Of a stretch of 64,000 nt of DNA, positions 27,014 to 60,299 are shown one piece after another; position 1 is the stretch's first letter, and each line of letters opens with the position of its first letter. This DNA comes from Squalus acanthias (taxonomy: Eukaryota). A program made the translations under genes and the position numbers. The stretch is from the NCBI GenBank assembly GCA_030390025.1, contig CM059432.1, positions 36,024,001 to 36,088,000 of the forward strand. Direction: 5' to 3'. Below the pieces are notes generated by a model. The model saw only the letters and a list, made by a program, of their open reading frames with translations, did not search any database and was not told where the DNA came from.

Positions 27014-27517
27014 GGGGGAATTTTAACTCCAAAAAACGGGTGGGTTGGGGTCGGGTGAGAAGTTAAAGGGCTGGATTTTGAATGACCCATGGAGTCCGGT
27101 TTGGAGGCGTGTGGGGGGTTAAATTTGCGGGGTCGGGGGTCCCGACTCCATCCCGCCTCCACGCAATTTTGACAAAATCAGTCGCGGGGTTCCCGACTCC
27201 GTCCCGCCTCCAAGAGGCGGGAGAAGCCATTAAAACCCTTAACAAGCCCTAAATTGGCTCTGTAATGCCATTTTGAAACGTTTTAGCTAGTTTAACCCTT
27301 TTCTGACGTGAAGTACGCCTGGTGTGAAACACTCCAGTGAAACCTGGCGGGAGCACAAGTGGATAGCTGACTATGAGCTGCAGGCCCACTATTACAACGG
27401 AGATGTGATGAAGGTAGTAGTAGTATTAGGTCTGAAAGTCGCCTCTGATGCTGCTGCATTGAATGTGTTCAGAGACTGCCTGGCCTTTGCTGTGAGAGGA
27501 CTTGGATGCAAAAAAAT

Positions 27518-27548
<31 letters not shown>

Positions 27549-28571
27549 GTCTCTCTCTCTCTCTCTGTCTCTGTCTCTCTCTCCCTCTCTCTTCCCCCTC
27601 CCATTTTTGCATCCAGGTCCACTCACATCAAAAGCAAGCCACGCAGGTCCTCTCTCACCAACAGTCTGTGAGACTAGGCAGTCAGCAATGATGACATCAT
27701 CAGAGGCGACTTTCAGACTGAAAACACTAATTAGTTCATGGGTTCCCACATGCTGGAACTCAATTGCCCAATTAAGTGAAAATTGCATCATTCATCCACA
27801 TTAATCTGGAGTCGGGGGGGAACCACGAAATGCGGATGACACGACCCCAACCCGACCCCAAGACAAAATCCAGCCCAAAGTGTTTAAAAACTGAATCCCG
27901 ACCAGAGCCCGCCTCCAACCCACCCACTTCGGGTTTTAACGGAGACAGGATGGAAGGCGGGCAGCCAACCCGCTCCCAGGAGGAGGGTTGCCTATTTAAA
28001 TATTATAATGAGGCTGGTGTGCCTCAGATTTAACCAGCGTTTCAAATTTAACTGTGACTGGTCGGGTTTCTCAGGCCTCGGGAAACCTGACAGTTAATGG
28101 AAGGCGAGGTGTGCTGGATCCAGTGACCCTGCCTAACCCACCCCCCGCGATCGGAGACCCCCCCATGAGGCCTCTGATCACCCCGCTCCCCCAGGCATCC
28201 GATCCCCCCCCCCCCCCACCCCCCACAAGGCCTCCGATCGCCTTCCCAGCCTCCCAACCCCCGCCCACCGATGATCTTCAGGCCGGCCCCGATGTTCTCT
28301 CCCTCCCCCCCAATGCTGGAGTCCAGGCCCCCGGCCCCCACCCGATCCCTCCCTCCCTCCTCTCTGCGGCCTAGTGCCGTAGAGTTACCCTGCCCGCAGC
28401 CAGCCAGCCTCTCCATCTGGCTGGCGGCAGGTGGGAAACAGAGGTTTCAAATGCAAATCAGGCCCTGATGTTAAATTCGGCAGGGCCTGCGGGAAACCCA
28501 TTCTCCCAGCTTTTCCGACCGCTTCCGAGCCCCCTGCTCCCAATCCGCCTTCCGATTAACATTCTGGCCCC
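27014..28571. mobile_element. Older GC-rich MITE (AAG TSD) hosting the 27068-27876 MITE
   Basis: GGGGGAATTTTAAC ... GATTAACATTCTGGCCCC ends; AAG on both sides; the flanks rejoin into CR1-like sequence. Confidence 0.6.
27068..27876. mobile_element. Harbinger-type MITE with AAA TSD, nested in another MITE
   Basis: GGGCTGGATTTTG / CAAAATCCAGCCC TIRs; AAA on both sides. Confidence 0.85.
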
Positions 28572-32630: not shown

Positions 32631-35600
32631 CATACGAACATATGAATTAGGAGCAGGAGTAGGCCACTCGGCCCTTTGAGCCTGCTCCGCCATTCAATAA
32701 GATCACGGCTGATCCGATTACTCCACATTCCCGCCTACCCCCGATAACTTTTCACCCCCTTGCTTACCAAGAATCTATCTACCTCTGCCTTAAAAATATT
32801 CAAAGACTCTGCTTCCACCGCCCTCTGAGGAAGAGAGTTCCAAAGACTCATGACCCTCTGTGAGAAAAAATTTCTCCTCATCTCTATCTTAAATGGGCGA
32901 ACCCTTATTTTTAAACAGTGACCCCTAGTTCTAGATTCTCCCACAAGAGGAAACATCCTCTCCACATCCACCCTGTCCAGACCCCTCAGGATCTTATATG
33001 TTTCAATCAAGTCACCTTTTACTCTTCCAAACTCTAGCGGATACAAGCCTAGCCTGTCCAACCTTTCCTCATAAGACAACCCGCCCATTCCAGGTATTAT
33101 TCTAGAAAACCTTCTCTGAACTGCTTCCAACACATTTACATCCTTCCTTAAATAAGGAGACCAATACTGTACACAGTACTCCAGATGTGGTCTCACCAAT
33201 GCCCTGTATAACTGAAGCATAACCTCCCTACTTTTGTATTCAATTCCCCTCGCAATAAACGATAACATTCTATTAGCTTTCCTAATTACTTGCTGTACCT
33301 GCATAGTAACCTTTTGCAATTCATGCACTAGGACACCTAAATCCCTCTGCATCTCAGAGCTCTGCAATCTCTCACCATTTAGATAATATGCTTCTTTTTT
33401 ATTCTTCCTGCCAAAATGGACAACTTCACATTTTCCCACATTATACTCCATTTGCCAGATCTTTGCCCACTCACTTAACCTATCTATATCCCTTTGTAGC
33501 CTCCTGATGTCCTCTTCACAATTTACTTTCCTACCTATCTTTGTGTCATCAGCAAATTTAGCAACCATACCTTCGGTCCCTTCATCCAAGTCATTTATAT
33601 AAATTGTAAAAAGTTGAGGCCCCAGCACTGATCCCTGTGGCACACCACTCGTTACATCTTGCCAATCAGAAAATGACCCATTTATGCCTACTCTCTGTTT
33701 CCTGTTAGCTAGCCAATCTTCTATCCATGCCAATATGTTACTCCCTACACCATGAGCTTTTATTTTCCGCAATAACCTTTGATGTGGCACCTTATCAAAT
33801 GCCTTCTGGAAATCTAAGTACAGTACATCCACCGGTTCCCCTTTATCCACAGCACATGTTACTTCCTCAAAGAACTCCAATAAATTGGTTAAACATGATT
33901 TCCCTTGCACAAAACCATGTTGACTCTGCCTGATTACTTTGAACTTTTCTAAGTGCCCTGCTATAACGTCTTTAATAATAGCTTCTAACATCTTCCCTAT
34001 GACAGATGTTAAGCTAACTGGCCTGTAATTTCCTGCTTTCTGTCTCCCTCCCTTTTTGAATAAAGGAGTTACATTTGCTATTTTCCAATCTAATGGAACT
34101 TTCCCTGAATCTAGGGAATTTTGGAAAATTAAAACCATTGCATCAACTATCTCACTAGCCACTTCTTTTAAGACCCTAGGATGAAGTCCATCAGGACCCG
34201 GGGACTTGTCAGCCCGCAGCTCCAACAATTTGCTCAGTACCACTTCCCTGGTGATTATAATTTTCTTGAGTTCCTCCCTCCCTTCCATTTCCTGATTTAC
34301 AGCTATTTCTGGGATGTTACTTGTGTCCTCTATAGTGAAAACTGATGCAAAATACCTGTTCAATTCAACTGCCATCTCCTTATTTTCCATTATTAATTCC
34401 CCAGACTCACTTTTTTATAGGACCAACGCTCACTTTGTTAACTCTTTTCTTTTTTAAATATCTATAGAAACTCTTACTATCTGTTTTTATATTTCTAGCT
34501 AGCTTTCTCTTGTACTCTAATTTTTCTCTCATTAATCTTTTAGTAATTCTTTGCTGTTTTTTATATTCTGTCCAATCTTCTGACCTGCCACCCATCTTTG
34601 CGTAATTATATGCTTTTTCTTTAAGTTTAATACTATCTTTAACTTTTTTAGTTAACCACAGATGGTGGGTCCTCCCCTTGGAATTTTTCTTTCTTGTTGG
34701 AATGTATATATTCTGTGTATTTTGAAATATCCCCTTAAATGTCTGCCACTGCAACTCTATTGACCTATCCCTTAACCTAATTTGCCAGTTCACTTTAGCT
34801 AGCTCTGCTTTCATGCCCTCATAATTGCCCTTGTTTAAGTTTAAAATACTAGTCTTGGACCCACTCCTCTCTCTCAAACTGAATGTAAAATTCAATCATA
34901 TTATGATCGCTGCTACCTAGGGGCGCCTTCACTATGAGGTCATTAATTAATCCTATCTCGTTGCACAATACCAGGTCTAGTATAGCCTGCTCTCTGGTTA
35001 GCTCCAGAACGTGCTGTTGTAAGAGACTATCCCGAAAACATTCCATGAACTCCTCATCTATGCTACCTTTGCCCATCTGATTTTTCCAGTCTATATGCAG
35101 ATTAAAATCCCCCATGATTATTGCCGTACCCTTCTGACAAACTCCCGTTATTTCTTCCTTTATACTCCATCCTACCGTGTGGTTACTGTTAGGGGGCCCG
35201 TACACCACTCCCACAAGTGACTTCTTGCCTTTATTATTTCTCATCTCTACCCAAACCGCTTCTACATCCTGGTTTCCTGAACTTAGGTCATCCCTCTCTA
35301 TTGTTCTAATACCATCATTAATTAACAGAGCCACCCCTCCACCTTATCTACCTTCCTGAATGTCATGTACCCTTCAATATTCAGGTCCCAATCTATGTCA
35401 TCCTGCAGCCATGTTTCTGTAATGGCTATCAGATCATATTTATTTATTTCTATTTGCGCTATCAGTTCATCTGTTTTGTTTCGAATACTATGTGCATTCA
35501 GATGCAGAGCCTTTAGTTTTGTCCTTTTATTATTTTTGTAACCTCTAGCCTTATCTGTTGATTTACTCTTAGATTTGTACTCTCTATCCCTTCCTGTCAC

Positions 35601-41508: not shown

Positions 41509-42463
41509 GTAAGTGTCTTGGTTTGATAGTGTGCAGACTCAAGTCAGGAGTGTGATGGAATACTCTCCACTTGCCTGGATGAGTGCATCTCCAATAACAT
41601 CAAGAAGCTCGACACCATCCAGGACAAAGCAGCCCGCTTGATTGGCACCCCATCCACCACCTTAAACATTCACTCCCTCCACCACCAGCGTACCGTGGCT
41701 GCAGTGTGTACCATCTACAAGATGCACTGCAGCAACTCGCCAAGGCTTCTTCGACAGCACCTCCCAAACTCGCGACCTCCACCGCCTAGACGGACAAGGG
41801 CAGCAGGCGCATGGGAACACCACCACCTCCAAGTTCCCCTCCAAGTCACACACTATCCTGACTTGGAAGTATATCGCCGATCCTTCATCATCGCTGGGTC
41901 AAAATCCTGGAACTCCCTCCCGAACAGCAGTGTGGGAGTACCATCACCACACGGACTGCAGCGGTTCAAGAAGGTGTTTCACCACCACCTTCTCGAGGGC
42001 AATTAGGGATGGGCAATAAATGCTGGCCTTGCCAGCGACGCCCACATCCCGTGAACGAATTAAAAAAAAACTCGTGTTACAACGAGAAAATGGCTGCTCT
42101 CGAAACAGGAAGGAGCGAGCACCCCGGATTTTCTGAACAAAGTGATACTGTCGCACACAGGGTACATTTGGAAGCAAGTACGCCTGCAAACCGTACTTGG
42201 AAACCAGAAGGAAAGATGACAGCAGCCCAGTACCTGCCCCAGTGATATTGGTTCCAGTGCTGACAGTTAGCTCCGCTCCTTAAATGGAGCTCTGGTAATG
42301 TCTCATTGGACAATGCCTCACCCAGTGTGGTACTGGGCCAGATGGGGGAATGGACAGTCCCACGCTCGATCTCTGACTTAGCCGATCACAGCTGAGGTGG
42401 CAGTGTGATTGGCTGCAGCATAACTGAGCTCAGGAGGGGAAAATCGGTCATGGTTCCCACTCC

Positions 42464-42624
42464 TGTGTGTGTCTGAGAATGTATGTGTGTGTCTGAGAAT
42501 GTATGTGTGTGTCTGAGAGTGTATGTGTGTGTCTGAGAATGTATGTGTGTGTCTGAGAATGTATGTGTGTGTCTGAGAGTGTATGTGTGTGTCTGAGAGT
42601 GTATGTGTGTGTCTGAGAATGTAT
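42464..42624. repeat. 20-bp satellite GTCTGAGARTGTATGTGTGT, left part
   Basis: Direct tandem copies. Confidence 0.95.
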
Positions 42625-42904
42625 GGGCTCGATTTTGCCATTGGGGTGGGCTGGGAGTGTGTCAGCTGGTTTTCATGTTAGCCACCCGACTCCAATGAGA
42701 TGTGGGAAAAAATTGCGATTTTCCCCTAATTGGGCACTTGATTTCCAGCGTGTGGGAACCCCTGGCCCAATTAGTCTTTCCATCCTGAAAGTCGCCTCCG
42801 ATGACGTCATCAGTGCTGCTGGATTTAAGGCCTGCAAGCAGCCTAGCTTCTTCTGCAGACTACAAACTTCATGCCCATTGCTGTAAGCCCTTATTTCAGC
42901 AACG

Positions 42905-43144
42905 ATGTCCAGCAGCAGGCCAAAGTCTGCTCCACGCTTTGATGACGCCGCCCTGCAAGCTCTGGTGGAGGGAGCCAGATCCAATAAGGAGGTGCTCTTC
43001 CCTTCCTCAGGGAGGAAAAAGCCTCCTCAGCAGACTAAAGCTGTGTGGATGCAAGTGGCCCAGGAGGTCAATTCTCTGTCTATGTGCCGCAGAACCTGAC
43101 TGCAGTGCAGGAAGAGGTTTCATGACCTTCTGCGCACTGGAAAA
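42905..43144 (+). pseudogene. Harbinger Myb/SANT-like gene, exon 1, with an in-frame TGA at codon 65
   Basis: MSSSRPKSAPRFDDAALQALVEGARSNKEVLF...WMQVAQEVNSLSMCRRT*LQCRKRFHDL resembles MSANTD/NAIF1-type trihelix domains; TGA at 43097-43099 sits at a Trp position; donor GTGAGT at 43145, phase 0. Confidence 0.85.
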
Positions 43145-43487
43145 GTGAGTATGACTTTCCCATCACCCTCAATCTGATCCCCATCGCCTCTCCTCACCAG
43201 CACTCTGCTTTGCCAACCTCTTCCTCCACATCCCACTTGACACTGACATCCCTGCACCCTTACCCATTCCCTCTCTCTGTATGTTCACATTCACTCAGCT
43301 ATTCGACTATGCAGCCCTCACACTCCCTATTGCTGTGATGCTATGACAATAACTTACAACACACAGGGAGGGCCCTTGGTCCTGGCACCTCACTCCATCT
43401 TTGTGTCCTTCTAAGCATCTATGCTATGGAATCTCTACACTCACTCCTTCATTTTCACTCAAACTCCACTTGTGTCCCTCATTGCAG

Positions 43488-43647
43488 GAAAAGAGAGCCC
43501 ACAATAAGAGGGAGAGGGTGAGGACAGGAGGAGGGCCACCCTCAGTAGCCCAGCTCACCCCTGCGGAGGAGGCGGCCCTGGAGATTGTGGGAGTGGAGGA
43601 GGATGCGCAAGTGGGGGACGGACAGACGGGCGCATCACAGCAAGCTG
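43488..43647 (+). pseudogene. Harbinger Myb/SANT-like gene, exon 2 (EKRAHNKRERVRTGGGPPSVAQLTPAEEAALEIVG...)
   Basis: ccctcattgcag acceptor ending 43487; TGGG..LT.AEE motif typical of the region after Myb/SANT domains; donor GTGACA at 43648, phase 1. Confidence 0.8.
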
Positions 43648-43803
43648 GTGACAGAATAGTTTGGCATCTCCCTCATCGACATTGCATGAGTCACTGATAA
43701 TGATTCTGATGCTCTAACTGATTGACTTATGATCATCTGCACTATTCAATGTTCATGTAACCATGACCTCACATCTCTAACTCTTTCCTTTACTCCCCCA
43801 CAG

Positions 43804-44828
43804 GACCATCCAAAGCCCCCGTCCCCACTGTCCAGGAGGAAGAGCCTGAGCTTCCACACTCCTCAGAGGAAGCTCCAACCTCTGAGGGCGCAGCGTCAGC
43901 AGAATTCAGAGCACCCAGCACCAGCGCAGACACTCACGCCTCGATGGGACCCTCGCGAGATAGAGTAGTGTTGTCACATGGTGTATCACAGCTCACAAGT
44001 GAGCATCAGCAGATGGTGGAGACAGGGACAGCAGTGGAGAGTCCTCGTCGGAGGGCGCAGGACTCTGCCAGCTCGGCTCAGCTGCATGTCGACCCTGTGC
44101 CTCCGGGTCCATCCAGAAGAACAGCGGTGCTGGAACTCCAGGAACAGGTGCAGGAGTCTCTGGCAGGTTTTGTCTCTAGGGTAGCTGCGAGTGTGGAGCG
44201 AATGGAGGAGTCCCTCGCTAACATGAGCAGAGCCTTTGTGGAGGTGTTGGCACATGAACGCAGCACCACGGAAAGGATGGCTACAGCCATGGAGGCAGTA
44301 AGTTGCCGGAGTGAGGAAAACATGGTGAGTGTTCAGAATAGACTGACATCTCTGGAGGAGCGATGGTCAGCTATTGAACAGAGAAACCAGAGCTTCATGG
44401 AAGTCCTTCTGAGTAGGACTGCCAGTGCAGAGACGGGTCCCCATGGCCCCCCTGATGTGCAGCAAGGTGCTCTCAAGCCACTTGCAAGCGCTGAGGTGGA
44501 CCTGACCCATGAGAGGGAAGTTGGTGGCAGACATCATGGAAGTGGGGGCTCCTCTCCAAGCGCTCACACTTCCATGCCACTGCAGAGCCCTCGGTCAGAG
44601 CCCCACCAGAGTCCCCACCCAACTGAGATCGGCGTCTCAACCCCTGCACAGCCGCAGGAGCAGCAGAATGTTGCCGAGCCCTCACAGGCTCGCAACCTCA
44701 GAGGACGCCCGCCAAAGGTGTCGAGGCAGGAGCAGCAAGAAAGTGAGCAAGGGGCCTCCACATCTGCTGAAGCCACAGGGGAAGCACCACGTAGGAGCAC
44801 GCGTAAAAGAAAAATAATGCACAAGTAG
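43804..44828 (+). pseudogene. Harbinger Myb/SANT-like gene, exon 3 (acidic/Ser-rich region, coiled-coil-like segment, RGRPPK, basic C-terminus PRRSTRKRK)
   Basis: ctttcctttactcccccacag acceptor ending 43803; g+ga=Gly puts the exon in frame with ORF 43944-44828; fully open to TAG at 44828. Confidence 0.75.
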
Positions 44829-45086
44829 TCACAAGGGTAGTCACTTGGGTGTAATGTTGTGTTTAATCTTGAAATGCCAGCACTTGCTTGGTGTGATAAA
44901 AAATTCTGCTGGCAAACTGCTGAAGTTGTGGCATCTGTCATTTAGCAAATGGGACTTCCACATTGAGGCCTTAGGATGACTTGCAATTGTCAGTATGGTG
45001 GTCAGAGTGATAGGAATCCACAGGTTCTTGGCCATTGTTGATGGTCTGATAAGAAGGTGCGAGGCAAAAGTGTTTGATTGTGCAGG

Positions 45087-45308
45087 CTAAGCAAATCTGG
45101 TCAAGTGCGTCCCTTGCATCCCGGGCAGCAATGTGGTCGCGCGCTGGCGCCTTCTGGCCTGTGCAGCTTCAGGTGGGTGAGCAGCAGCTTGGCACTCCTA
45201 TTGATGCTGCTACTGCTGGTGGTGCTGTTGTTCATGGTTCTGCTGCTGCCACGGCTGGTCTTTGTCCGAATCTGATGTCCAGGAGGAAAGGAATTAAATG
45301 GTCGCCAT
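45087..45308 (-). pseudogene. Stub of a probable Harbinger transposase (N-terminus fused to C-terminus, catalytic core missing)
   Basis: MATI*FLSSWTSDSDKDQPWQQQNHEQQHHQQ*QHQ*ECQAAAHPPEAAQARRRQRATTLLPG; a shifted frame reads DHIAARDARDAL; convergent to the Myb gene; homologous to 58255-58497. Confidence 0.55.
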
Positions 45309-45857
45309 GCTTCTGGTATATGCCTCAGTTGAGGAAGCGCTCAGTCAAGGTGGCGAGAGGGGTTTCCCAGGAGGTCACACTGGAGATGGGTGTCAGGCTC
45401 CAAACTTCCACAACAATGGGTATGCCTGCTAAAAGTTCCCCCAGACCTGAGACCACAAAGTTCTGCCACCTGCAAATGAAGATTGCTGAAAACTCCTTTT
45501 TAATGGTGGAGTTGCAGCTGTTAGTAAACAATCCACTTGTGTTGCCGCCAGGATTCACTGGCGTGTTTCAGAGGAGGCGTAAAGCACGTGGGAAAAGTGT
45601 TAAAATCAGAAAGGCCTCTCAAAATGGGATTATAGAGGCACTTAACTGGTTGTTAAGGGCCTTAAGGGCCTATCCCGCCTCTTGGAGGCGGGATGGAGAC
45701 GGGGTCAGAAAACTCGCATGTGGGAAAATTGCTTGGAGGCGGGATGGAGGCGGGATCGGGCCCGGCCGCCAGTTTTTGCGATTTTAACAGTTCACACGCC
45801 TCCAATCCCGCCTCCTCGGGCCTGGCAAAATCGAGCCCTGTGTGTGTCTGAGAGTGT

Positions 45858-46446
45858 GGCTGGATTTTGATACTGGGGCGGGTTGGGGTCGTGTCATCCA
45901 CTTTTCGTGTTATCCACCCGACTGCAATTGGATGTGGGAGATTGATGCGATTTTCACCTAATTGGGCAATTCAGTTCCAGCATGTGGGAACCCATGAACC
46001 AATTAATGTTTTCAGTCTGAAAGTCGCCTCTGATGATGTCTTCATTACTGCTGTATTGAAGGTCTTCAGAGACTGCCTGGCCTTTGCTGTGAGAGGACCT
46101 GGATGCAAAATCAGCAGCAGCAGCCCTAAGAGAGAGAGAGAGAGAGGTGTTACCGCCAGGTTTCACATTCGTGGTTCAGAACAGGCGTGCTTCACATAGA
46201 ACAAGGGTTAAAATCACAAAGGCCTTTCAAAATGGCATTATAGAGCCAATATAGTGCTTGTTAAGGGCCTTAACAGCCTATCCCGCCTCTTAAAGGCGGA
46301 ACGGAGTCGGGACCAGCAGACATGATTTAATGAAAATTGCGTGGAGGCGGGATGGAGGCGGACTTGTGCCCGCCTGCCAGTTTTCGCAATTTTAACCCCC
46401 TACACGCCTCCAAACCCGCCTCCACGGGTCAATGAAAATCCAGCCC
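45858..46446. mobile_element. Harbinger-type MITE
   Basis: GGCTGGATTTT ... AAAATCCAGCCC termini; interior resembles both ends of the 42625-45838 element. Confidence 0.82.
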
Positions 46447-47383
46447 TGTATGTATGTGTCTGAGAGTGTATGTGTGTGTCTGAGAGTGTATGTGTGTGTC
46501 TGAGAATGTATGTGTGTGTCTGAGAATGTATGTGTGTGTCTGAGAATGTATGTGTGTGTCTGAGAGTGTATGTGTGTGTCTGAGAGTGTATGTGTGTGTC
46601 GGAGAATGTATGTGTGTGTCTGAGAGTGTATGTGTGTGTCTGAGAGTGTATGTGTGTGTCTGAGAGTGTATGTGTGTGTCTGAGAGTGTGTATGTGTGTG
46701 TCTGAGAGTGTGTATGTGTGTGTCTGAGAATGTGTGTGTGTGTCTGAGAATGTGTGTGTGTGTCTGAGAATGTGTGTGTGTGTCTGAGAGTGTGTATGTG
46801 TGTGTCTGAGAGTGTGTGTGTGTCTGAGAATGTATGTGTGTGTCTGAGAGTGTATGTGTGTGTCTGAGAATGTATGTGTGTGTCTGAGAGTGTATGTGTG
46901 TGTCTGAGAGTGTATGTGTGTGTCTGAGAGTGTATGTGTGTGTCTGAGAATGTGTGTGTGTGTCTGAGAGTGTGTGTGTGTGTCTGAGAGTGTATGTGTG
47001 TGTCTGAGAGTGTATGTGTGTGTCTGAGAGTGTATGTGTGTGTCTGAGAGTGTGTGTGTGTCTGAGAATGTATGTGTGTGTCTGAGAGTGTATGTGTGTG
47101 TCTGAGAATGTATGTGTGTGTCTGAGAGTGTATGTGTGTGTCTGAGAGTGTATGTGTGTGTCTGAGAATGTGTGTGTGTGTCTGAGAGTGTGTGTGTGTG
47201 TCTGAGAGTGTATGTGTGTGTCTGAGAGTGTATGTGTGTGTCTGAGAATGTGTGTGTGTGTCTGAGTGTGTGTGTGTGTCTGAGAGTGTATGTGTGTGTC
47301 TGAGAGTGTGTATGTGTGTGTCTGAGAATGTATGTGTGTGTCTGAGAGTGTATGTGTGTGTCTTGAGAGTGTGTATGTGTGTG
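46447..47383. repeat. 20-22-bp satellite GTCTGAGARTGTATGTGTGT, right part
   Basis: Direct tandem copies with variable GT number. Confidence 0.97.
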
Positions 47384-48454
47384 TTGACTTTGAGTCAGGA
47401 TATTACACACCGGGTAAAAGGGAACGATTAACTCCCATCTGGTACTGTACGGCCCGTGTGTGTCTCAGTGTCAGCACCTGTAGAGGTACAACCCTAAATC
47501 TCCTCAGTTGGACTTCTGAAGCAGCCTGTACTTCTTGTCTGTCTCCCCCCCCACCCTCCCCACATAATGTTTCTCCCCTCCCCCAGTTTTACCATCTTTG
47601 GTTCTGACGGTGCTGGCTCGTCCCAGGGCTTTGGATCCCATGGGCACCAGTCACCCGCTAATATCTCACTCAAGTGATCATTCAGGGTGTTCTGCAACAA
47701 ATTTCCACACACACTCTCTCACACTCACTCACACGCTCACTCACATACACATACACGTGCACACAGACACACACACTCTCATACACACATGTGCACATAT
47801 ATACTCATGCATATGCGCGCACAGACACATGCACTCACACACATTCTCAAGCATTACTCACCTTGACATGCAGACATATATAAAAATACACGCATTCACA
47901 CACTCAGCTTCACATGCACACACAAACACACACTCTCAATCACACACCTACCAGCAGGTATCACAGAATGGAACTTGGCTATGATGCCCTTCATAGTCAA
48001 ATAGCTTACTGATACTTATTGCATAGGTTCACACATGAAGAATGGACGAGGTAGCAGTTGGTACTGGTGGGACTGTCTCCCAGGAAGACACACCACCTTC
48101 AGGAGAGGGAGGAAGAAAATTGGAAAGGAATGGGGTAAAACAAGAGAGCAAGGGGTTCGAGTGGCGTGAAGCTGTGCTCCCTGTCACTGTGGGCTCCTCA
48201 CTGCCCTCTCTGGTACTGACTGATGTACAGACGTACTTACCGCCTTGTAATTCCCTCCTAATTATAGACCCTGCCTTACTCATCAGAGGGAGCAAATTAC
48301 AGGTTTATTTTATTTATTTTAGTCTGCCTTCAGAAGATGCAAAAAATGTTACTTACGATTGAAATGTTCAGGACACTGTAGAATTGGCTGACCAGCCAGC
48401 CCAGCAGTCAGTGTTTTTAATTTGATTCACAGCTGATGCAGTACCGAATGAACC

Positions 48455-49005
48455 TTGGTCAGACCCCACCTGGAGAACTGCGTTCAGTTTTGGGCACCAT
48501 ACCTCAGGAAGGATATATTGGCCTTGGAGGGGGTGCAGCACAGATTCACCAGAATGATACCAGGGCTTAAAGGGTTAAATTATGAGGACAGGTTGCCTAA
48601 ACTTGGCTTGTTTTCCCTTGCGTTTAGAAGATTAAGGTGTGACCTAATCAAGGTGTTTAAAATGATTAAGGGATTCGATAGAGTAGAGAAACTATTTCCT
48701 CTGATGGGTGAATCCAGAACAAGAAGGCATAATCTTAAAATTAGAGCCAGGCCATTCAGGAGTGAAATCAGGAAGCACTTTTTCACACAACGGTAGTGGA
48801 AATCTGGAACTCTCTCCCCCATAAGGCTGTGGATGCTAGGAAAATTAAATTTTCAAGACTGAGATCAATAGAATTTTACTAGGTAAGGGTATCAAGGGAT
48901 TTGGTTGAAAGTCGGCTAAGTGAGGTTGAGGTACAGATCAGCCATGATCTAATAGAATGGTGGAACAGGCTCAAGGGGCTGAATGGCCTAGTCCTGTTCC
49001 TATGT
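48455..49005 (+). mobile_element. CR1 3' fragment
   Basis: VRPHLENCVQFWAP...RRLRCDLI. Confidence 0.85.
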
Positions 49006-49552
49006 ACCTACAGTATTTGGCCAAACACACCGTAAAGGTCCTGGGTTCAACACCTGACCTCAGCTCGGAAGTAATGAGGAGGGGCACTTTGCACCCCCAG
49101 GTTTAGAAAGGAGGGAGGCCAGAGTTCCTGCTCCTGCTCACAATCGGCCGCCCCCTGCTGGCAGAGTAGCATGTTGACGCTAACTGTCCAGGCTCACATA
49201 TGACACATGGTTACATAATACCGGGGTGCGGGGGCACCAATACCCTAGGAAGAGTCAGAGAGTTCGGGGGGAGTGGGGGGGGGAGGAATCAGGAAAGAAT
49301 AATACAAGTGACTGAGACAAACCAGGGTATGGAGATTAGATTTAAAAGCTGGTGGACTGTAGGAGGAAGGGAACGCTGAATTGAAGGGTATGCTGGAAAT
49401 CTGAAATTAAGTGTGCCAGTCACTGTCTGACAGAGAGTAGTGTTGTGTATTGGACCCTTCCCCAGAGCTTCATTCCTGCTGATTGGGTCCCCATCGAAGG
49501 GGTAAATCTGGCGATTTTTTTCGTAGCTCAGCGTTTCCCGAGTGGGGCAATA

Positions 49553-50660
49553 ACCACCACTCTGCCCCACCCCCATCACTGCCCCACCCCCACCTCACTG
49601 CCCCACCCCCACCTCACTGCCCCACCCCCACCTCACTGCCCAACCCCCACCTCTCTGCCCCACCCCCACCTCACTGCCCCACCCCACCTCTCTGCCCCAC
49701 CCCCTCACTGCCCCACCCCCTCACTGCCCCATCCCCTCACTGCCCCACCCCCTCTCTGCCACACCCCCACCTCACTGCCTCACCCCACCTCACTGCCCCA
49801 CCCCCACCTCACTGCCCCATCCCCCCTCACAGCCCCACCCCCACCTCACTGCCCCACCCCCACCTCTCTGCCCCACCCTCACCTCACTGCCCCACCCCCA
49901 CCTCACTGCCCCACCCCACCTCTCTGCCCCACCCCCACCTCACTGCCCCACCCCCACCTCACTGCCCCACCCCCACCTCTCTGCCCCACCCTCACCTCAC
50001 TGCCCCACCCCCACCTCACTGCCCAACCCCCACCTCTCTGCCCCACCCCCACCTCACTGCCCCACCCCACCTCTCTGCCCCACCCCCTCACTGCCCCACC
50101 CCCTCACTGCCCCATCCCCTCACTGCCCCACCCCCTCTCTGCCACACCCCCACCTCACTGCCTCACCCCCCCTCACTGCCCCACCCCCACCTCACTGCCC
50201 CACCCCCTCACTGCCCCACCTCCATCACTGCCCCACCCTCACCCCCACCTCTCTGCCCCACCCCACCTCACTGCCCCACCCCCACCTCACTGCTCCACCC
50301 TCACCTCACTGCCCCATCCCCCCTCACTGCCCCACCCCCACCTCACTGCCCCACCCCCACCTCTCTGCCCCACCCTCACCTCACTGCCCCACCCCCACCT
50401 CACTGCCCCACCCCACCTCACTGCCCCACCCCCACCTCACTGCCCCACCCCCACCTCTCTGCCCCACCCTCACCTCTCTGCCCCACCCCCACCTCTCTGC
50501 CCCACCCCACCTCTCTGCCCCACCCCCACCTCTCTGTCCCACCCTCACCTCTCTGCCCCACCCCCACCTCTCTGCCCCACCCCCACCTCACTGTCCCACC
50601 CCCACCTCTCTGCCCCACCCCCACCTCTCTGCCCCACCCCCACCTCACTGTCCCACTCCC
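49553..50660. repeat. C-rich minisatellite of about 20 bp (CCTCACTGCCCCACCCCCA)
   Basis: Degenerate tandem array; G-runs on the - strand. Confidence 0.95.
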
Positions 50661-50759
50661 AGGCTGCCTGCCCAGATTAAGGGGTGGTTGGGAATTTGCT
50701 ACTCGGATGGAGTGCTTCTTTATGAATGTCTTATATGTTCTGAGCGATTCGTGGAGTAG

Positions 50760-51229
50760 TCTCACATCTCTCTCCTCTCTCTCCTTCCCTCTCTCTCTCC
50801 CTCTCCCTCCCTCTCTCCCCTTCTCTATCCCTCTCTCCCTCTCTCTATCTATCCCTCTGTCTCTATCCTTCTCTCCTCACTGTCTCTCCCTCTCTCCCTC
50901 ACTTTGTTTCTCTCTCTCCCCACAATCTCCCTCTCCTTCACTCCCTCCCTCTTTATCTCTCCCTGTCTCTCCCCCTGTGTTTTCTGTCTGTCTCTATTTC
51001 CTCTATCCACTCTCCCTCTGTCTCTCCCTCTTTCCTCACTCTCTTGCTCTAAATCTCTCCTTCTAATGCTCTCTTCCTCGATATCTCTCTCTCTCCCCTT
51101 TTCCCCTCTATTTCTCACCCTCTCCCTCTTCCCTCTCACTCTCTCCCTCTATCTGTTTCTCCCCTCTCCCTCTCTGTCTCCCTCTCTCATTATCACTCTG
51201 TCTCCCTCTATCTCTTTCCCCCTCTCCGC
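50760..51229. repeat. CT-rich low-complexity tract abutting the last-exon acceptor
   Basis: Almost pure pyrimidine on the + strand. Confidence 0.93.
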
Positions 51230-51231
51230 AG

Positions 51232-54568: not shown

Positions 54569-55419
54569 GGGCTGGATTTTGTGAATGGAGACGAGTTGGA
54601 GGCGGGACTGCTGCTTGTCGTGTCAATGTCCCGCCTCCATCCTCGCCTGACCAACCAGAGGGATTTTCCCCTGATTGCGCTTGTTAAGCCCGCTCTGAGG
54701 GCTCAGCAGGCCAATTAGGGAGGAAGTCACTGACAGAGCATGTCAACGTCAGACATGCTATCTGTCAAGACTTCTTGAAAGAAGAAATGTCAGCGTTTGA
54801 CAGCTCTGTGAAGCTGTCAAACACTGACATTCTCTGTAGTTTGATGAGTCCTTGTGTTCAGGACTCATCAAATCTTTCAACTTTGTTGATTTCACATGGC
54901 TGTTGGTTCGGAGGTTCCAACAGCCAGTCTGTGAAATCGACAAGGATGATGTTGGCTCTCCTGATCCAGCGCGGCTGAAGGCTGTAGGAAGAAAACAAGG
55001 TAAGTGAACATTTTTAAAAACTTATCACTCACCTTACATACTTACCACTCCACACTTGCACCCATCACTCACCTACCTCTACATCTTACTTCCAGGTGCC
55101 TCCGACCGCCGCAGACCTCCTTCACGTCTCCTCCAACCCGGCGGGGTTCTCCGAGGTCGGGAAGCCTTCACCTGTGAAGGTAAAATGGCACTAATCCTTT
55201 TTTTCTGCCTGTTAACTACCTGTTAACAGGCAGTTAAAAGAATTAAATACCTTTCCCGCCTCCAGGAGACGGGACCCGAAGCAGCACATCTTCCCGCCTC
55301 CTGGCAAAAGGGCACGGAGGCGGGATGGGGGCGGGTTTGCCATCCGCCCCCACTTTCTCCGAATTTACCGGCTGTCCCTCCTCCATGCCCGCCTCCTCGG
55401 TGCTTGGAAAATCCAGCCC
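54569..55419. mobile_element. Harbinger-type MITE with AAT TSD
   Basis: GGGCTGGATTTT / AAAATCCAGCCC TIRs; AAT at 54566-54568 and 55420-55422. Confidence 0.87.
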
Positions 55420-55576: not shown

Positions 55577-56378
55577 GGGCTGGATTTTCATTGACCCGTG
55601 GAGGCGGGTTTGGAGGCGTGTGGGGGGTTAAAGTTGCAGATTCGGGGGTCCCGCCCCCAACCCGCCTCCATGCCAGTTTCGCTGGAGGCGGGTACCCGAC
55701 CTGTGCTGGGACCCGCCTCCCTGAGGCGGGAAGGGGATTAGTGGCAATAAACTGCCTGTTAACAGGCAGTTTTTTGCCTAATCCCTATTTTGATGCATGA
55801 AATGTGGGCTTCCCGACAGGTCCCAACCACGCCAAGTTAGCGACCGTGGGTCTGCAGGGGTTGGAGGGGTCGATATGTCCGGTGGGCAGGTGAGTGATGG
55901 GTGCATGTGTGCAGAGGTAAGTGTAAAGTGTGGGAAAAAGTTTTACTTACCTTAACTTCCTCCTGCAGATGTCAGCCCTTCAGGTCTCGGGAGTCAGAAA
56001 TCTCACCGGCACAGAAAGCACAATGGCCATTGACCTGTCAAAAACTGCAGTTCTGTTTTCTGTGCTGGATTGATTTCTAACTCAGCCTGAGAGGAAGGAC
56101 TCAAGTTAGAAGACAGATTGTCAGTGTTTGACAGCTTCACAGAGCTGTCAAACGCTGATATTTCATCTGTCAAAAGCTCTTGACAGATGAAATGTCAATC
56201 TGTGACGTCACCTGTTGCCGGGTGGCCCTTAATTGGCCTGCTGAGCTCGCTGGGCGGGCTCAACAAGGTCAATCAAGTGAAAATGCAGTGGGTTGGCCAC
56301 AAGTCGATGGAGGCGGGACTACAACCCAAAAAGTGGGAGTCCCGCCTCCATCACGTCCCCAGTATCAAAATCCAGCCC
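55577..56378. mobile_element. Harbinger-type MITE with TAT TSD, inverted relative to 54569-55419
   Basis: Same TIRs; TAT at 55574-55576 and 56379-56381. Confidence 0.87.
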
Positions 56379-57595: not shown

Positions 57596-58254
57596 AAGAA
57601 ATCGCGAACATTTGGTTTTACCTTGCTGGGTATTTTTGTTGTTGCTTGTTATGAGTTGCTGAGGTGACAGATGTCAGTGCTAAGGTGGGGAACCACTTTC
57701 ACTTGTTTCCTTTCAGTCCCAGCTCAGGTACAGTAACGTAGGCCGAGATTTTCCAGGGGCTCAGCGGGCGCGATCGATGGCGGGTTGGGTGGGAAAGTCG
57801 AGACCCTGCTGTGAACCCGCTGCCATGCGCCTTTACCAAATGTCGGGTCTGTGAGCACTGAGCAAACCCGACACGCAGCAGCGGGGGAGCCAGTTTAAAT
57901 GATTAGTGGCTTGTTTACAGCCACTTAACAATGGCTTTAAACTGACCTTTTGAATTTGACAGCTCGCCCACAGGTTTCATGCTGTTGCTAGACCACATCT
58001 GTGAAGCTGAGGCGGGAGGTCAGTGGCCATTGAATCAGCTGATGAGTTGACAGCTTCAAATGTCAAGTAAAAGCTCCCACCTTACAGAGATATCATCCCT
58101 CAGCCACAAGCTCTTCCTCACTGCATTTCCACAACAGATTCACCATGCTGCAAGTCTTTACACAAGTCTCCATCCAGTCTGACCTCATTACCTCTCTCAC
58201 CATTGACAGATCGCTTCTGTCATCTCTACTTCACCTGCCATCTATTCCATCAGC

Positions 58255-58497
58255 ATGGGTGCCCTTGAAACTCTCTCACCTTGGTCCTCAGAATCCCACC
58301 ACGAAATGCCCCAACACCAGCAGCACCAGGCACACCAGCAGCACCTACAACAACACCAACCTTCTCTGCAACCAGCTGGTGCTGCACAGGACAGAAGGCA
58401 TCAGCACCCGACCACATTGTTGCCTGGGAGGCCAGGGATGGGCTCAGCATGGCCAGATTTACTTCACTTGACGCTGTACACCCTGGCTGCCACATGA
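58255..58497 (+). pseudogene. Transposase-like stub of the second Harbinger element
   Basis: MGALETLSPWSSESHHEMPQHQQHQ...AGAAQDRRHQHPTTLLPG aligns with the 45087-45308 stub; a shifted frame reads DHIVAWEARDGLSMARF. Confidence 0.55.
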
Positions 58498-58986
58498 TGC
58501 GCCAGATTGGCACCACCCCACACCAACACCATAAAGCATCCCTATAATGCCCAAGCAATTCCTTTCACACTCATCACCATTGGGGGGGGGGGGGGGGGGG
58601 TACCCGTATGTCTCACCATTCACTGCAACTCACTAAGTCACTTCCAACGATGCACACAAATCTGTCCAAGAATGCAAAGTGTTGAAAATAAAGGTTTCAA
58701 TGTTTGACACCACATTAACAGAAACTTTACATGAACATTGCATAAAACACCCATTGCCTACCCTTGTGTGTTGTTAGTTGGTATGATTGCACTAGGATGA
58801 GGGTGAGTGTGAGGGGTGGCTAGTGAGATGGGGATGTGATAATGTAGATAGAGAGAGAGGGATGGGTGGCAGTCCAAGGTAAGTTGGTGTGAGTAAGGAT
58901 GTGCAGGAGTAGGGTAGGGAAGGCAGAGTGATGGGGATGTGATGAGAGGCACAGCAGGATGAGGTTGCGTGTGGCTTTGTACTAAC

Positions 58987-59211
58987 GTTTCGTGATCTAC
59001 GTTTGTGGCACTGCACCCAGGTCCTCCTGACCACATCCTTGTTTGTGTCCTCCTATGCATTGTGTAACCAGGCTGTGTTGGTCTCCTGGGGAGATCTCTT
59101 CCGCCCATTGGAAGGGAAGAGCACCTCCCTACATACTGTGACTCCCTCCATAAGCATATAGAGGGAGTCATGGGAGAGCCTGGGTGCAGCCCTGTGCCTT
59201 TGTGAAGTCAT
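58987..59211 (-). pseudogene. Degenerate Myb/SANT-like exon 1 of the second Harbinger element
   Basis: MTSQRHRAAPRLSHDSLYMLMEGVTVCREVLFPSNGRKRSPQETNTAWLHNA*EDTNKDVVRRTWVQCHKR aligns with 42905-43144; followed by donor GTTAGT; exons 2-3 absent. Confidence 0.78.
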
Positions 59212-60299
59212 TGTCAGTGTTTGCAGCACCTCAATGCTGCAGAACACTGACAGCACAAATGTCAAACTAAATTTGGCTATGGTTCCTTTAAGGAAACCGG
59301 CTGATGACGTGTCATCAAATGACATCACCAGACCCGCTTCCTCTAATTGGCTGGGAAATGCGCTGGATGGGCTTAACAAGCCCAATCAAGGGAAATTCAT
59401 TTCAGAGGCCAGGATGGAGCCAGCAGCAGGGTCGGGACATGCCACCGACATCGCCCACCACAGGCCCGCCGAAGTCAGCAAAATCGCGGCCATAATGTTT
59501 ATGTTACTGGACTAGTAATCCAGAGAATATCAGTTCAAATCCACCATGAGTTCAGTTAAAATATCAGTAAAAGTGACTATGAAGCTGTCGGATTGTCGTT
59601 AAAAACCCCACTGGTTCACTAATATCCTTTAGGGAAGGAAACCTGCCGTCCTTACCCAGTTTGGACTATATGTGACTCCAGTCCCACACAGATGTGGTTG
59701 ATTCTTAACTGCCCTCTGAAGTGGCCTATCAAGCCAAACAGTTGTATCACCACCTTCTCAGGGCAGCAAGGGATGGGCAATAAATGCCAGCCATGCCAGT
59801 GACACCCACATCACGAGAATGAGTTAAAATAAAAGCTGCCTCCGAAGCTGGAGATTCATCTTTCATCCCAAACTCGTCCTTTCTCCTCAACCACTCTTCC
59901 CTCTTCAAGTTCAAATCTGTCCAAGACTTGAATAGTGTTTCCATATCTGGGGAGTTTCTTTTCGCATCTCTCACACTCCTGAATGGCACAAGGGGAAAAG
60001 CTTGTCATCCCTTTCTCGCCTATGTCTCTCTCACAGCTTCTCTTTTTTTTATTGGTACTGTGATGACTGCTTCTCTGAATTTTTGCTCTCAAGCTCTGAA
60101 TTTATTATTCCATGTGCTGGTCCTCCTGCTCCCTGTGTTGAAATCTTCTCACACTCTTTTGTTTTGTGTCAGCCGTGGCTCAGTGGAAGCATTCTTGCCT
60201 CTGAGTCAGAGGGTTGTGGGTTCACCCCTGCTCCAGAGACCTGAGCACATCATTTTTGCTGACACTCCAGTGCAGTGCTGAGGGAGTGCGGCCCTGGGT

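Follow-up and report, generated by a model that had tools for sequence, protein, structure and literature searches.

A transposase-deleted, Myb-bearing Harbinger element of Squalus acanthias and the deletion junction it shares with its relatives

The element and its setting in a D-serine-dehydratase-like gene

The window considered here is a stretch of 64,000 nucleotides from the 3.7-Gb genome of Squalus acanthias (assembly GCA_030390025.1, contig CM059432.1, positions 36,024,001 to 36,088,000 of the forward strand). It contains seven coding exons of a D-serine-dehydratase-like host gene, spanning 1364-51321. The exon stretches inspected are open, and in a Pfam scan of four of the exons, two matched D-ser_dehydrat and one Ala_racemase_N. 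Many LINE-like fragments are scattered through the introns of the host gene, and a 559-residue open stretch on the minus strand (32735-34414), together with several other places, looks like a LINE reverse transcriptase.

Intron 6 of this gene (41509-51231, plus strand) harbors a Harbinger element of 3214 bp (42625-45838, plus strand), as the initial annotation had stated. The element, hereafter the query element, belongs to a lineage designated B1. Its terminal inverted repeats (TIRs), at 42625-42640 on the plus strand and 45823-45838 on the minus strand, are perfectly matching 16-mers, also as claimed. It was inserted into a 20-bp minisatellite (42464-42625) that picks up again at 46447-47382, and is flanked by TAT on the left (42622-42624) and TGT on the right (45839-45841), an imperfect target duplication. 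Identical 3-bp flanks are found in 67 of 100 family copies that have both ends; these are mostly A/T, with only six of the 67 being strictly TTA or TAA.

The Myb gene of the query element is made up of three exons on the plus strand. Exon 1 (42905-43144) encodes a Myb/SANT domain at residues 10-79, exon 2 (43488-43647) a TGGG motif, and exon 3 (43804-44828) a region of 21-bp tandem units, an RGRP motif, a basic tail and the stop. Intron 1 (43145-43487) and intron 2 (43648-43803; splicing predicted from sequence) both have GT..AG borders, and the spliced exons come to 1425 nt, or 474 codons plus the stop, with a sole internal stop, a premature TGA at codon 65 (43097-43099). The gene structure, the single lesion and the three motifs correspond to what had been described from the sequence, and the Myb/SANT assignment was borne out by a match of exon 1 to PF13873 (Myb_DNA-bind_5) with an E value of 2.4e-10 and 40.6 bits, against a Pfam cut-off of 21.7. 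The coiled-coil-like segment fared less well, as it is matched only by weak, sub-threshold Pfam families. A comparison of exon 1 with solved structures returned zero matches at E values up to 1. The number of 21-bp units in exon 3 (around 44255-44300; seen in L064, L067 and L010) varies between lineages, in steps of seven residues.

Codon 65 normally encodes Trp, as the initial annotation had supposed from another copy: it is TGG in 40 of 45 B1 rows and TGA in three, including the query element. The TGA common to the query element, L136 and L139 was considered as a sign that a Myb-null copy had transposed. This was rejected, as the three copies have few other alleles in common and are not placed together in the tree. 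The predicted junction 43144^43488 across intron 1 was found as an exact joint in contigs of two out of four sequencing runs from one study that were guessed to be RNA, although the locus from which these contigs came cannot be told; the joint across intron 2 is absent from the matches listed. The runs cover introns as well as exons and are therefore uninformative about the level of expression. The joint bears out the gene model at the level of the family, but is no support for the deleted loci being expressed.

Loss of the transposase and decay of the Myb gene

The initial annotation had inferred that the transposase was lost, and only two short remnants of its gene are indeed left, both on the minus strand within 45087-45344. 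The C-terminal remnant (45087-45141) carries a 5-nt deletion near 45103, and the N-terminal remnant (45142-45344) matches residues 1-61 at 74%. They meet at a deletion junction at 45141/45142, placed to within about 3 nt because of microhomology. Relative to the full-length copies L063 and L064, 1021 nt containing the DDE core are absent, while both ends of the gene are kept. Full-length relatives are about 4.3 kb long and have a minus-strand ORF, which in L100 encodes 426 amino acids and matches DDE_Tnp_4 (PF13359) with an E value of 1.1e-34.

The deletion is not private to the query element but defines a large multi-copy class, in accordance with the transposase-less subfamily that had been proposed. 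The 22-base left end of the query element occurs in 614 copies; of the first 60 of these, 44 have the junction, two are full-length and 14 are uninformative. Genome-wide, the junction pattern gave at least 1548 matches and a pattern for the unbroken B-type site at least 531; both counts are lower bounds, and the latter leaves out A-type intact copies. With that reservation, deleted copies stand to unbroken-site matches at about 3 to 1. Of 40 copies fetched by the unbroken-site pattern, 38 contain the middle of the element. An earlier whole-element search overlooked the closest relatives of the query element, yielding instead a sister family at 87% identity; its 29 copies were selected by score, are biased to indel-free frames, and were excluded from the lesion counts given below.

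The family has a DDE_Tnp_4 transposase in its full form, a second gene of Myb/SANT type, short TIRs and a 3-bp, A/T-rich target duplication, all features of PIF/Harbinger elements. The query element has lost the catalytic core and kept its ends, its junction is shared by many copies, and an intact source is present in the genome. It is a non-autonomous PIF/Harbinger deletion derivative and, as an element, ordinary. That this copy has been domesticated to serve the host, in the manner of NAIF1 or MSANTD, is scarcely credible. NAIF1 and MSANTD1-4 likewise contain a Myb/SANT domain of Harbinger origin (PMC9392472), but in the available sections of that paper they are fixed and syntenic and evolve under purifying selection. 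A domesticated gene would be a single fixed locus with an open frame and no TIRs; the protein domain is all that the query element has in common with such genes. It is a young intronic insertion and a dispersed repeat with intact TIRs and a stop inside the Myb domain, and by pattern count has hundreds of dispersed relatives that are 95-96% identical.

Two further features travel with the junction. The 5-nt deletion is present in 98 of 141 deleted rows and in none of 63 full-length rows, and the base at a position six nucleotides from the junction is shared by 92% of deleted rows compared to 3% of full-length B rows. Because the junction is identical and both the base and the 5-nt deletion are linked to it, a single origin is favored.

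Some copies have undergone additional shortening. A 2.67-kb form, in which the Myb protein is cut near residue 314 and most of exon 3 is gone, accounts for 10 of the 60 copies, and a 1.68-kb form for two of the 60. These forms (L035, L046, L047, L049, L050, L053, L058, L069, L070 and L075 for the former; L041 and L078 for the latter) are nested second deletions, both on the haplotype of lineage B3, and are steps towards a MITE.

The initial annotation had further inferred that selection continued to act on the Myb gene while a Myb-only subfamily amplified. This is not supported by the copies, which show scattered frameshifts and near-neutral change, a sign that the annotation itself had named as refuting. 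The 104 deleted copies with all three exons (28 more that lack an exon were left outside the count) carry 94 stops, 108 frameshifts and 16 lesions of a splice site or the start, or 2.1 per copy. The Myb frame is open in 15 of the 104 copies, compared to 12.8 expected under a Poisson distribution, and 42 have no more than one lesion, compared to 39.6 expected, or about 40%. Within lineage B1, four of 33 frames are open, compared to 4.3 expected. A selected Myb-only subfamily would be enriched in open frames, and no enrichment is seen among the deleted copies. Of the 52 private indels, only 12 have a length divisible by three. Within groups, pN/pS is 0.77 (0.65-0.92), which may be taken as the neutral baseline for a counting method that ignores transition bias. 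Lineage B1 is star-like, with copies about 2% from their majority sequence and the query element 1.6% from it. Since the copies decay at the rate expected by chance, the nearly open frame of the query element is unremarkable; it reflects youth (that 1.6%), not preservation.

Through the 5-nt deletion, the remnant of the transposase gene regains its native stop, and a fused frame of about 73 residues results (45087-45308, minus strand). Among 140 deleted copies this frame is open in 63 (L040, L068 and L072, for example), but it is broken in the query copy. The KP elements of the P family offer a model for what such a product might do: the deleted form could damp transposition, through an excess of Myb protein or through the 73-residue fragment, and spread by selection at the level of the host. 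The restored stop and the roughly threefold excess of deleted copies over unbroken-site matches (A-type intact copies being uncounted) are what such a repressor would lead one to look for. However, neither frame is better kept than expected by chance: Myb decays at the Poisson rate, and if its lesion rate is scaled to a frame of 220 nt, about 70 copies should be open by our estimate. Both frames are broken in the query copy. A repressor role is accordingly considered improbable.

Selective constraint and the mosaic origin of Myb genes

Comparisons between lineages give a different picture from those within them. The net dN/dS between the deleted sub-lineages B1-B5 is 0.26-0.46, and 0.08-0.30 for the Myb domain, which means that Myb was conserved somewhere in its history. 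Where the constraint had acted was sought using the 40 copies with the unbroken-site pattern and additional deleted copies.

Trees of the Myb region have deleted copies mixed in with full-length ones, and the AU test rejects a grouping of all deleted copies into one clade (p = 1.2e-55, for 31 rows picked after earlier trees had been seen). Three of seven deleted lineages have Myb genes that match those of transposase-bearing parents. Thus, the deleted lineage B2 is identical to the full-length lineage F1, and the deleted lineage AD to the full-length lineage AF, with a 0% majority difference over most of the Myb gene. At informative sites the change from one parent to the other is sharp. In AD, the backbone is of A type except for a short patch of B type around the junction, B2 has a single crossover inside exon 3, and lineage E carries a B1-type tract that extends from exon 3 to past the junction. 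In the A-type deleted copies, the bases are of B type for about 140 nt to the left of the junction, unlike those of their own parent. Many full-length copies (L091-L130) have mismatched ends, GGGCTGG on the left and GGGCTCG on the right, which is what recombination between end types would give.

Constraint is significant in the alleles that deleted and full-length lineages have in common, with a ratio of nonsynonymous to synonymous changes (N:S) of 106:82 compared to 1020:406 (p = 4e-5). The alleles private to deleted lineages were evaluated under two definitions of "synonymous" that gave differing results: 21:12 when pooled under the first rule (p = 0.33), and 31:22 when pooled together with E under the looser rule, against a baseline of 1335:546 (p = 0.065, before L222 and L227 were added), which leans to constraint. 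Corresponding controls for full-length lineages gave 28:15 (p = 0.39) and 23:12 (p = 0.57), making this a weak test in either direction. No fixed stops were found among the alleles private to deleted lineages. All shared indels in the coding sequence are in frame, and all are 21-bp repeat units. Lineage E was for a while a candidate for a second deleted-only lineage under selection (12:12, p = 0.039). However, two of 20 copies targeted in a search for its partner proved to be full-length, 17 of the 24 alleles that had seemed private to E were found in the full-length copies L222 or L227, and the signal was mostly gone.

No intact partner was found for B1 among 36 informative copies, in a sample that consisted of 37 of the 39 other top matches, the remaining two being already in the set. 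Genome-wide searches with pairs of patterns likewise gave zero intact matches against 367 for one pair and zero against 47 for the other. Of 61 full-length rows, 53 contain the anchor of the former pair. Both pairs lie near the junction, and a partner as rare as that of E could be missed. As no intact partner was found, the 2-3% stem of B1 may have accrued without a transposase. The private alleles of B1 have ratios of 13:6 (p = 0.80) or 11:8 (p = 0.21) depending on the rule, with little power, and those in the Myb domain 0:4 under the loose synonymous rule (p = 0.011) or 2:2 under the first.

These observations bear on a semi-autonomous division of labor, in which the Myb protein comes from deleted elements and, once the transposase is lost, those master copies whose Myb gene still works are favored. 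Such an arrangement would fit the low ratios between B1-B5, and especially in the Myb domain, compared to 0.77 within groups; the apparent solitude of B1; the in-frame state of all shared coding indels, even if these are repeat units; and the splicing of intron 1 in some member of the family. It is nevertheless unlikely. Copies decay at the Poisson rate, the 2.67-kb form multiplied despite its truncated Myb protein, as did the 1.68-kb form on a smaller scale, the significant constraint resides in alleles held in common with full-length lineages, and with the signal of E mostly lost, what remains is that of B1, 13:6 or 11:8. Moreover, the protein is made in the cytoplasm and has little means of favoring its own template. 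Between sub-lineages there is a genuine signal of purifying selection, but for the most part it goes back to parents that carry a transposase.

The explanation that we consider probable is that the query element is a non-autonomous copy from a class of more than 1,500 that share a junction, likely moved by the transposase and Myb protein of intact relatives, and that the deletion was spread by recombination. In outline, the deletion would have arisen once. Breaks left by excision would then have been repaired from a non-allelic copy, by template switching or gene conversion, placing the deletion onto successive intact backbones. Every such chimera would at first have possessed a fresh Myb gene, owing to conservation in the intact parent; the chimeras would have multiplied as shorter passengers and then decayed. 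Mobilization in trans is suggested by the dispersed copies having target duplications of their own.

Comparison with other Harbingers and an older family with the same breakpoint

Myb-only Harbingers are already on record, although no paper on the family of the query element was found in the open-access literature. The Harbinger-Snek elements of sea kraits include "solo-ORF" variants, of which those with only a transposase outnumber those with only a Myb gene (PMC8437027). Unlike the present analysis, the available sections of that paper contain neither a test of selection nor the transfer of one junction between sub-lineages. In Caenorhabditis inopinata, MADF/Myb-only derivatives of Harbinger-1M_cIno have expanded, and it was proposed that functions are supplied in trans (PMC13668399). 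In that case, according to the portions available, one intact DDE gene is left and 14 of 19 MADF loci are intact, whereas in S. acanthias, copies with both genes are common, and of the 104 deleted copies with all exons only 15 are open. The words "recombination" and "nonsynonymous" do not occur in the main text of that paper. Myb-only elements are not described in the accessible part of an account of newt Harbingers (PMC5741667).

The autonomous Harbingers of fish encode a DDE transposase together with a Myb-like protein that binds the TIRs and the transposase, and both genes are required for transposition (PMC9179366). The same paper, in the parts available, reports no single-ORF Harbinger in teleosts and judges recombination between families to be rare, whereas within the family of the query element it is frequent. 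Chimeric DNA transposons that multiply are known from the hobo families of Anolis (PMC3014272) and from maize MuDR (PMC10401008), which belong to other superfamilies. The likeness extends to internal deletions that arise through interrupted gap repair, a process that yields derivatives which are moved in trans and recombine (PMC3014272). The conversion of several autonomous lineages by one inactivating deletion is absent from the available sections of these two papers.

From this, a caution follows: where non-autonomous sub-lineages differ from one another with low dN/dS, recombination can have passed this on to them from intact parents, and it is therefore no proof of a selected Myb-only element. 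The caution bears on the division of labor in trans that was proposed for C. inopinata.

A second Myb-bearing element lies at 57741-59491 on the minus strand of the window. The initial annotation had treated it as a sister copy of the query element, but it is no sister: protein identity over exon 1 is 45%, it has a stop of its own, and it belongs to an older family. Its DNA is 66-76% like that of the query element; it has kept Myb exon 1 and has the same breakpoint of the transposase deletion. Elements of this family are about 1.75 kb long, and its copies (loci L229-L258) are 83-90% alike. The junction motif is present in 26 of the 30 loci fetched, the copy in the window included, and the loci match the query protein over exon 1 only. 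Intact parents would not have ranked in this search because its query spanned the junction. The 20 bases to the left of the older-family junction are the same as in the query element and differ at two or more positions from those of today's full-length copies.

The breakpoint common to the two families suggests, on comparison of the sequences, that the junction may be ancient. It could also reflect a hotspot, with the same kilobase dropping out of each lineage separately, at a microhomology prone to breakage, and without transfer of the junction. Such recurrent deletion is very improbable as a general account. The microhomology extends over no more than about 3 nt, the linked base and 5-nt deletion travel with the junction, and the A-type deleted copies have B-type bases to its left where their own parent does not. 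Recurrence is already contradicted for AD, B2 and E, and could apply to the older family alone. The same breakpoint also occurs in at least seven young haplotypes. We offer, tentatively and with some doubt, the proposal that the junction is the real unit, a parasitic allele that might be older than the families that carry it and that would survive by turning every Harbinger lineage that becomes active into a shorter passenger with a Myb gene.

Since Myb-only Harbingers have been published before, what is additional here are the crossover tracts and the presence of the same breakpoint in an older family that is only about 70% alike. If the junction does predate its carrier families, the family of the query element would be well suited to studying how a single inactivating deletion can endure and spread among cut-and-paste transposons. 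The window also contains short, MITE-like pieces, at 1-257, 27068-27876, 45857-46446, 55302-55419 and 55577-56378, whose Harbinger ends are those of the same wider family, and that at 45857-46446 is only 18 bp from the query element, within the same minisatellite.
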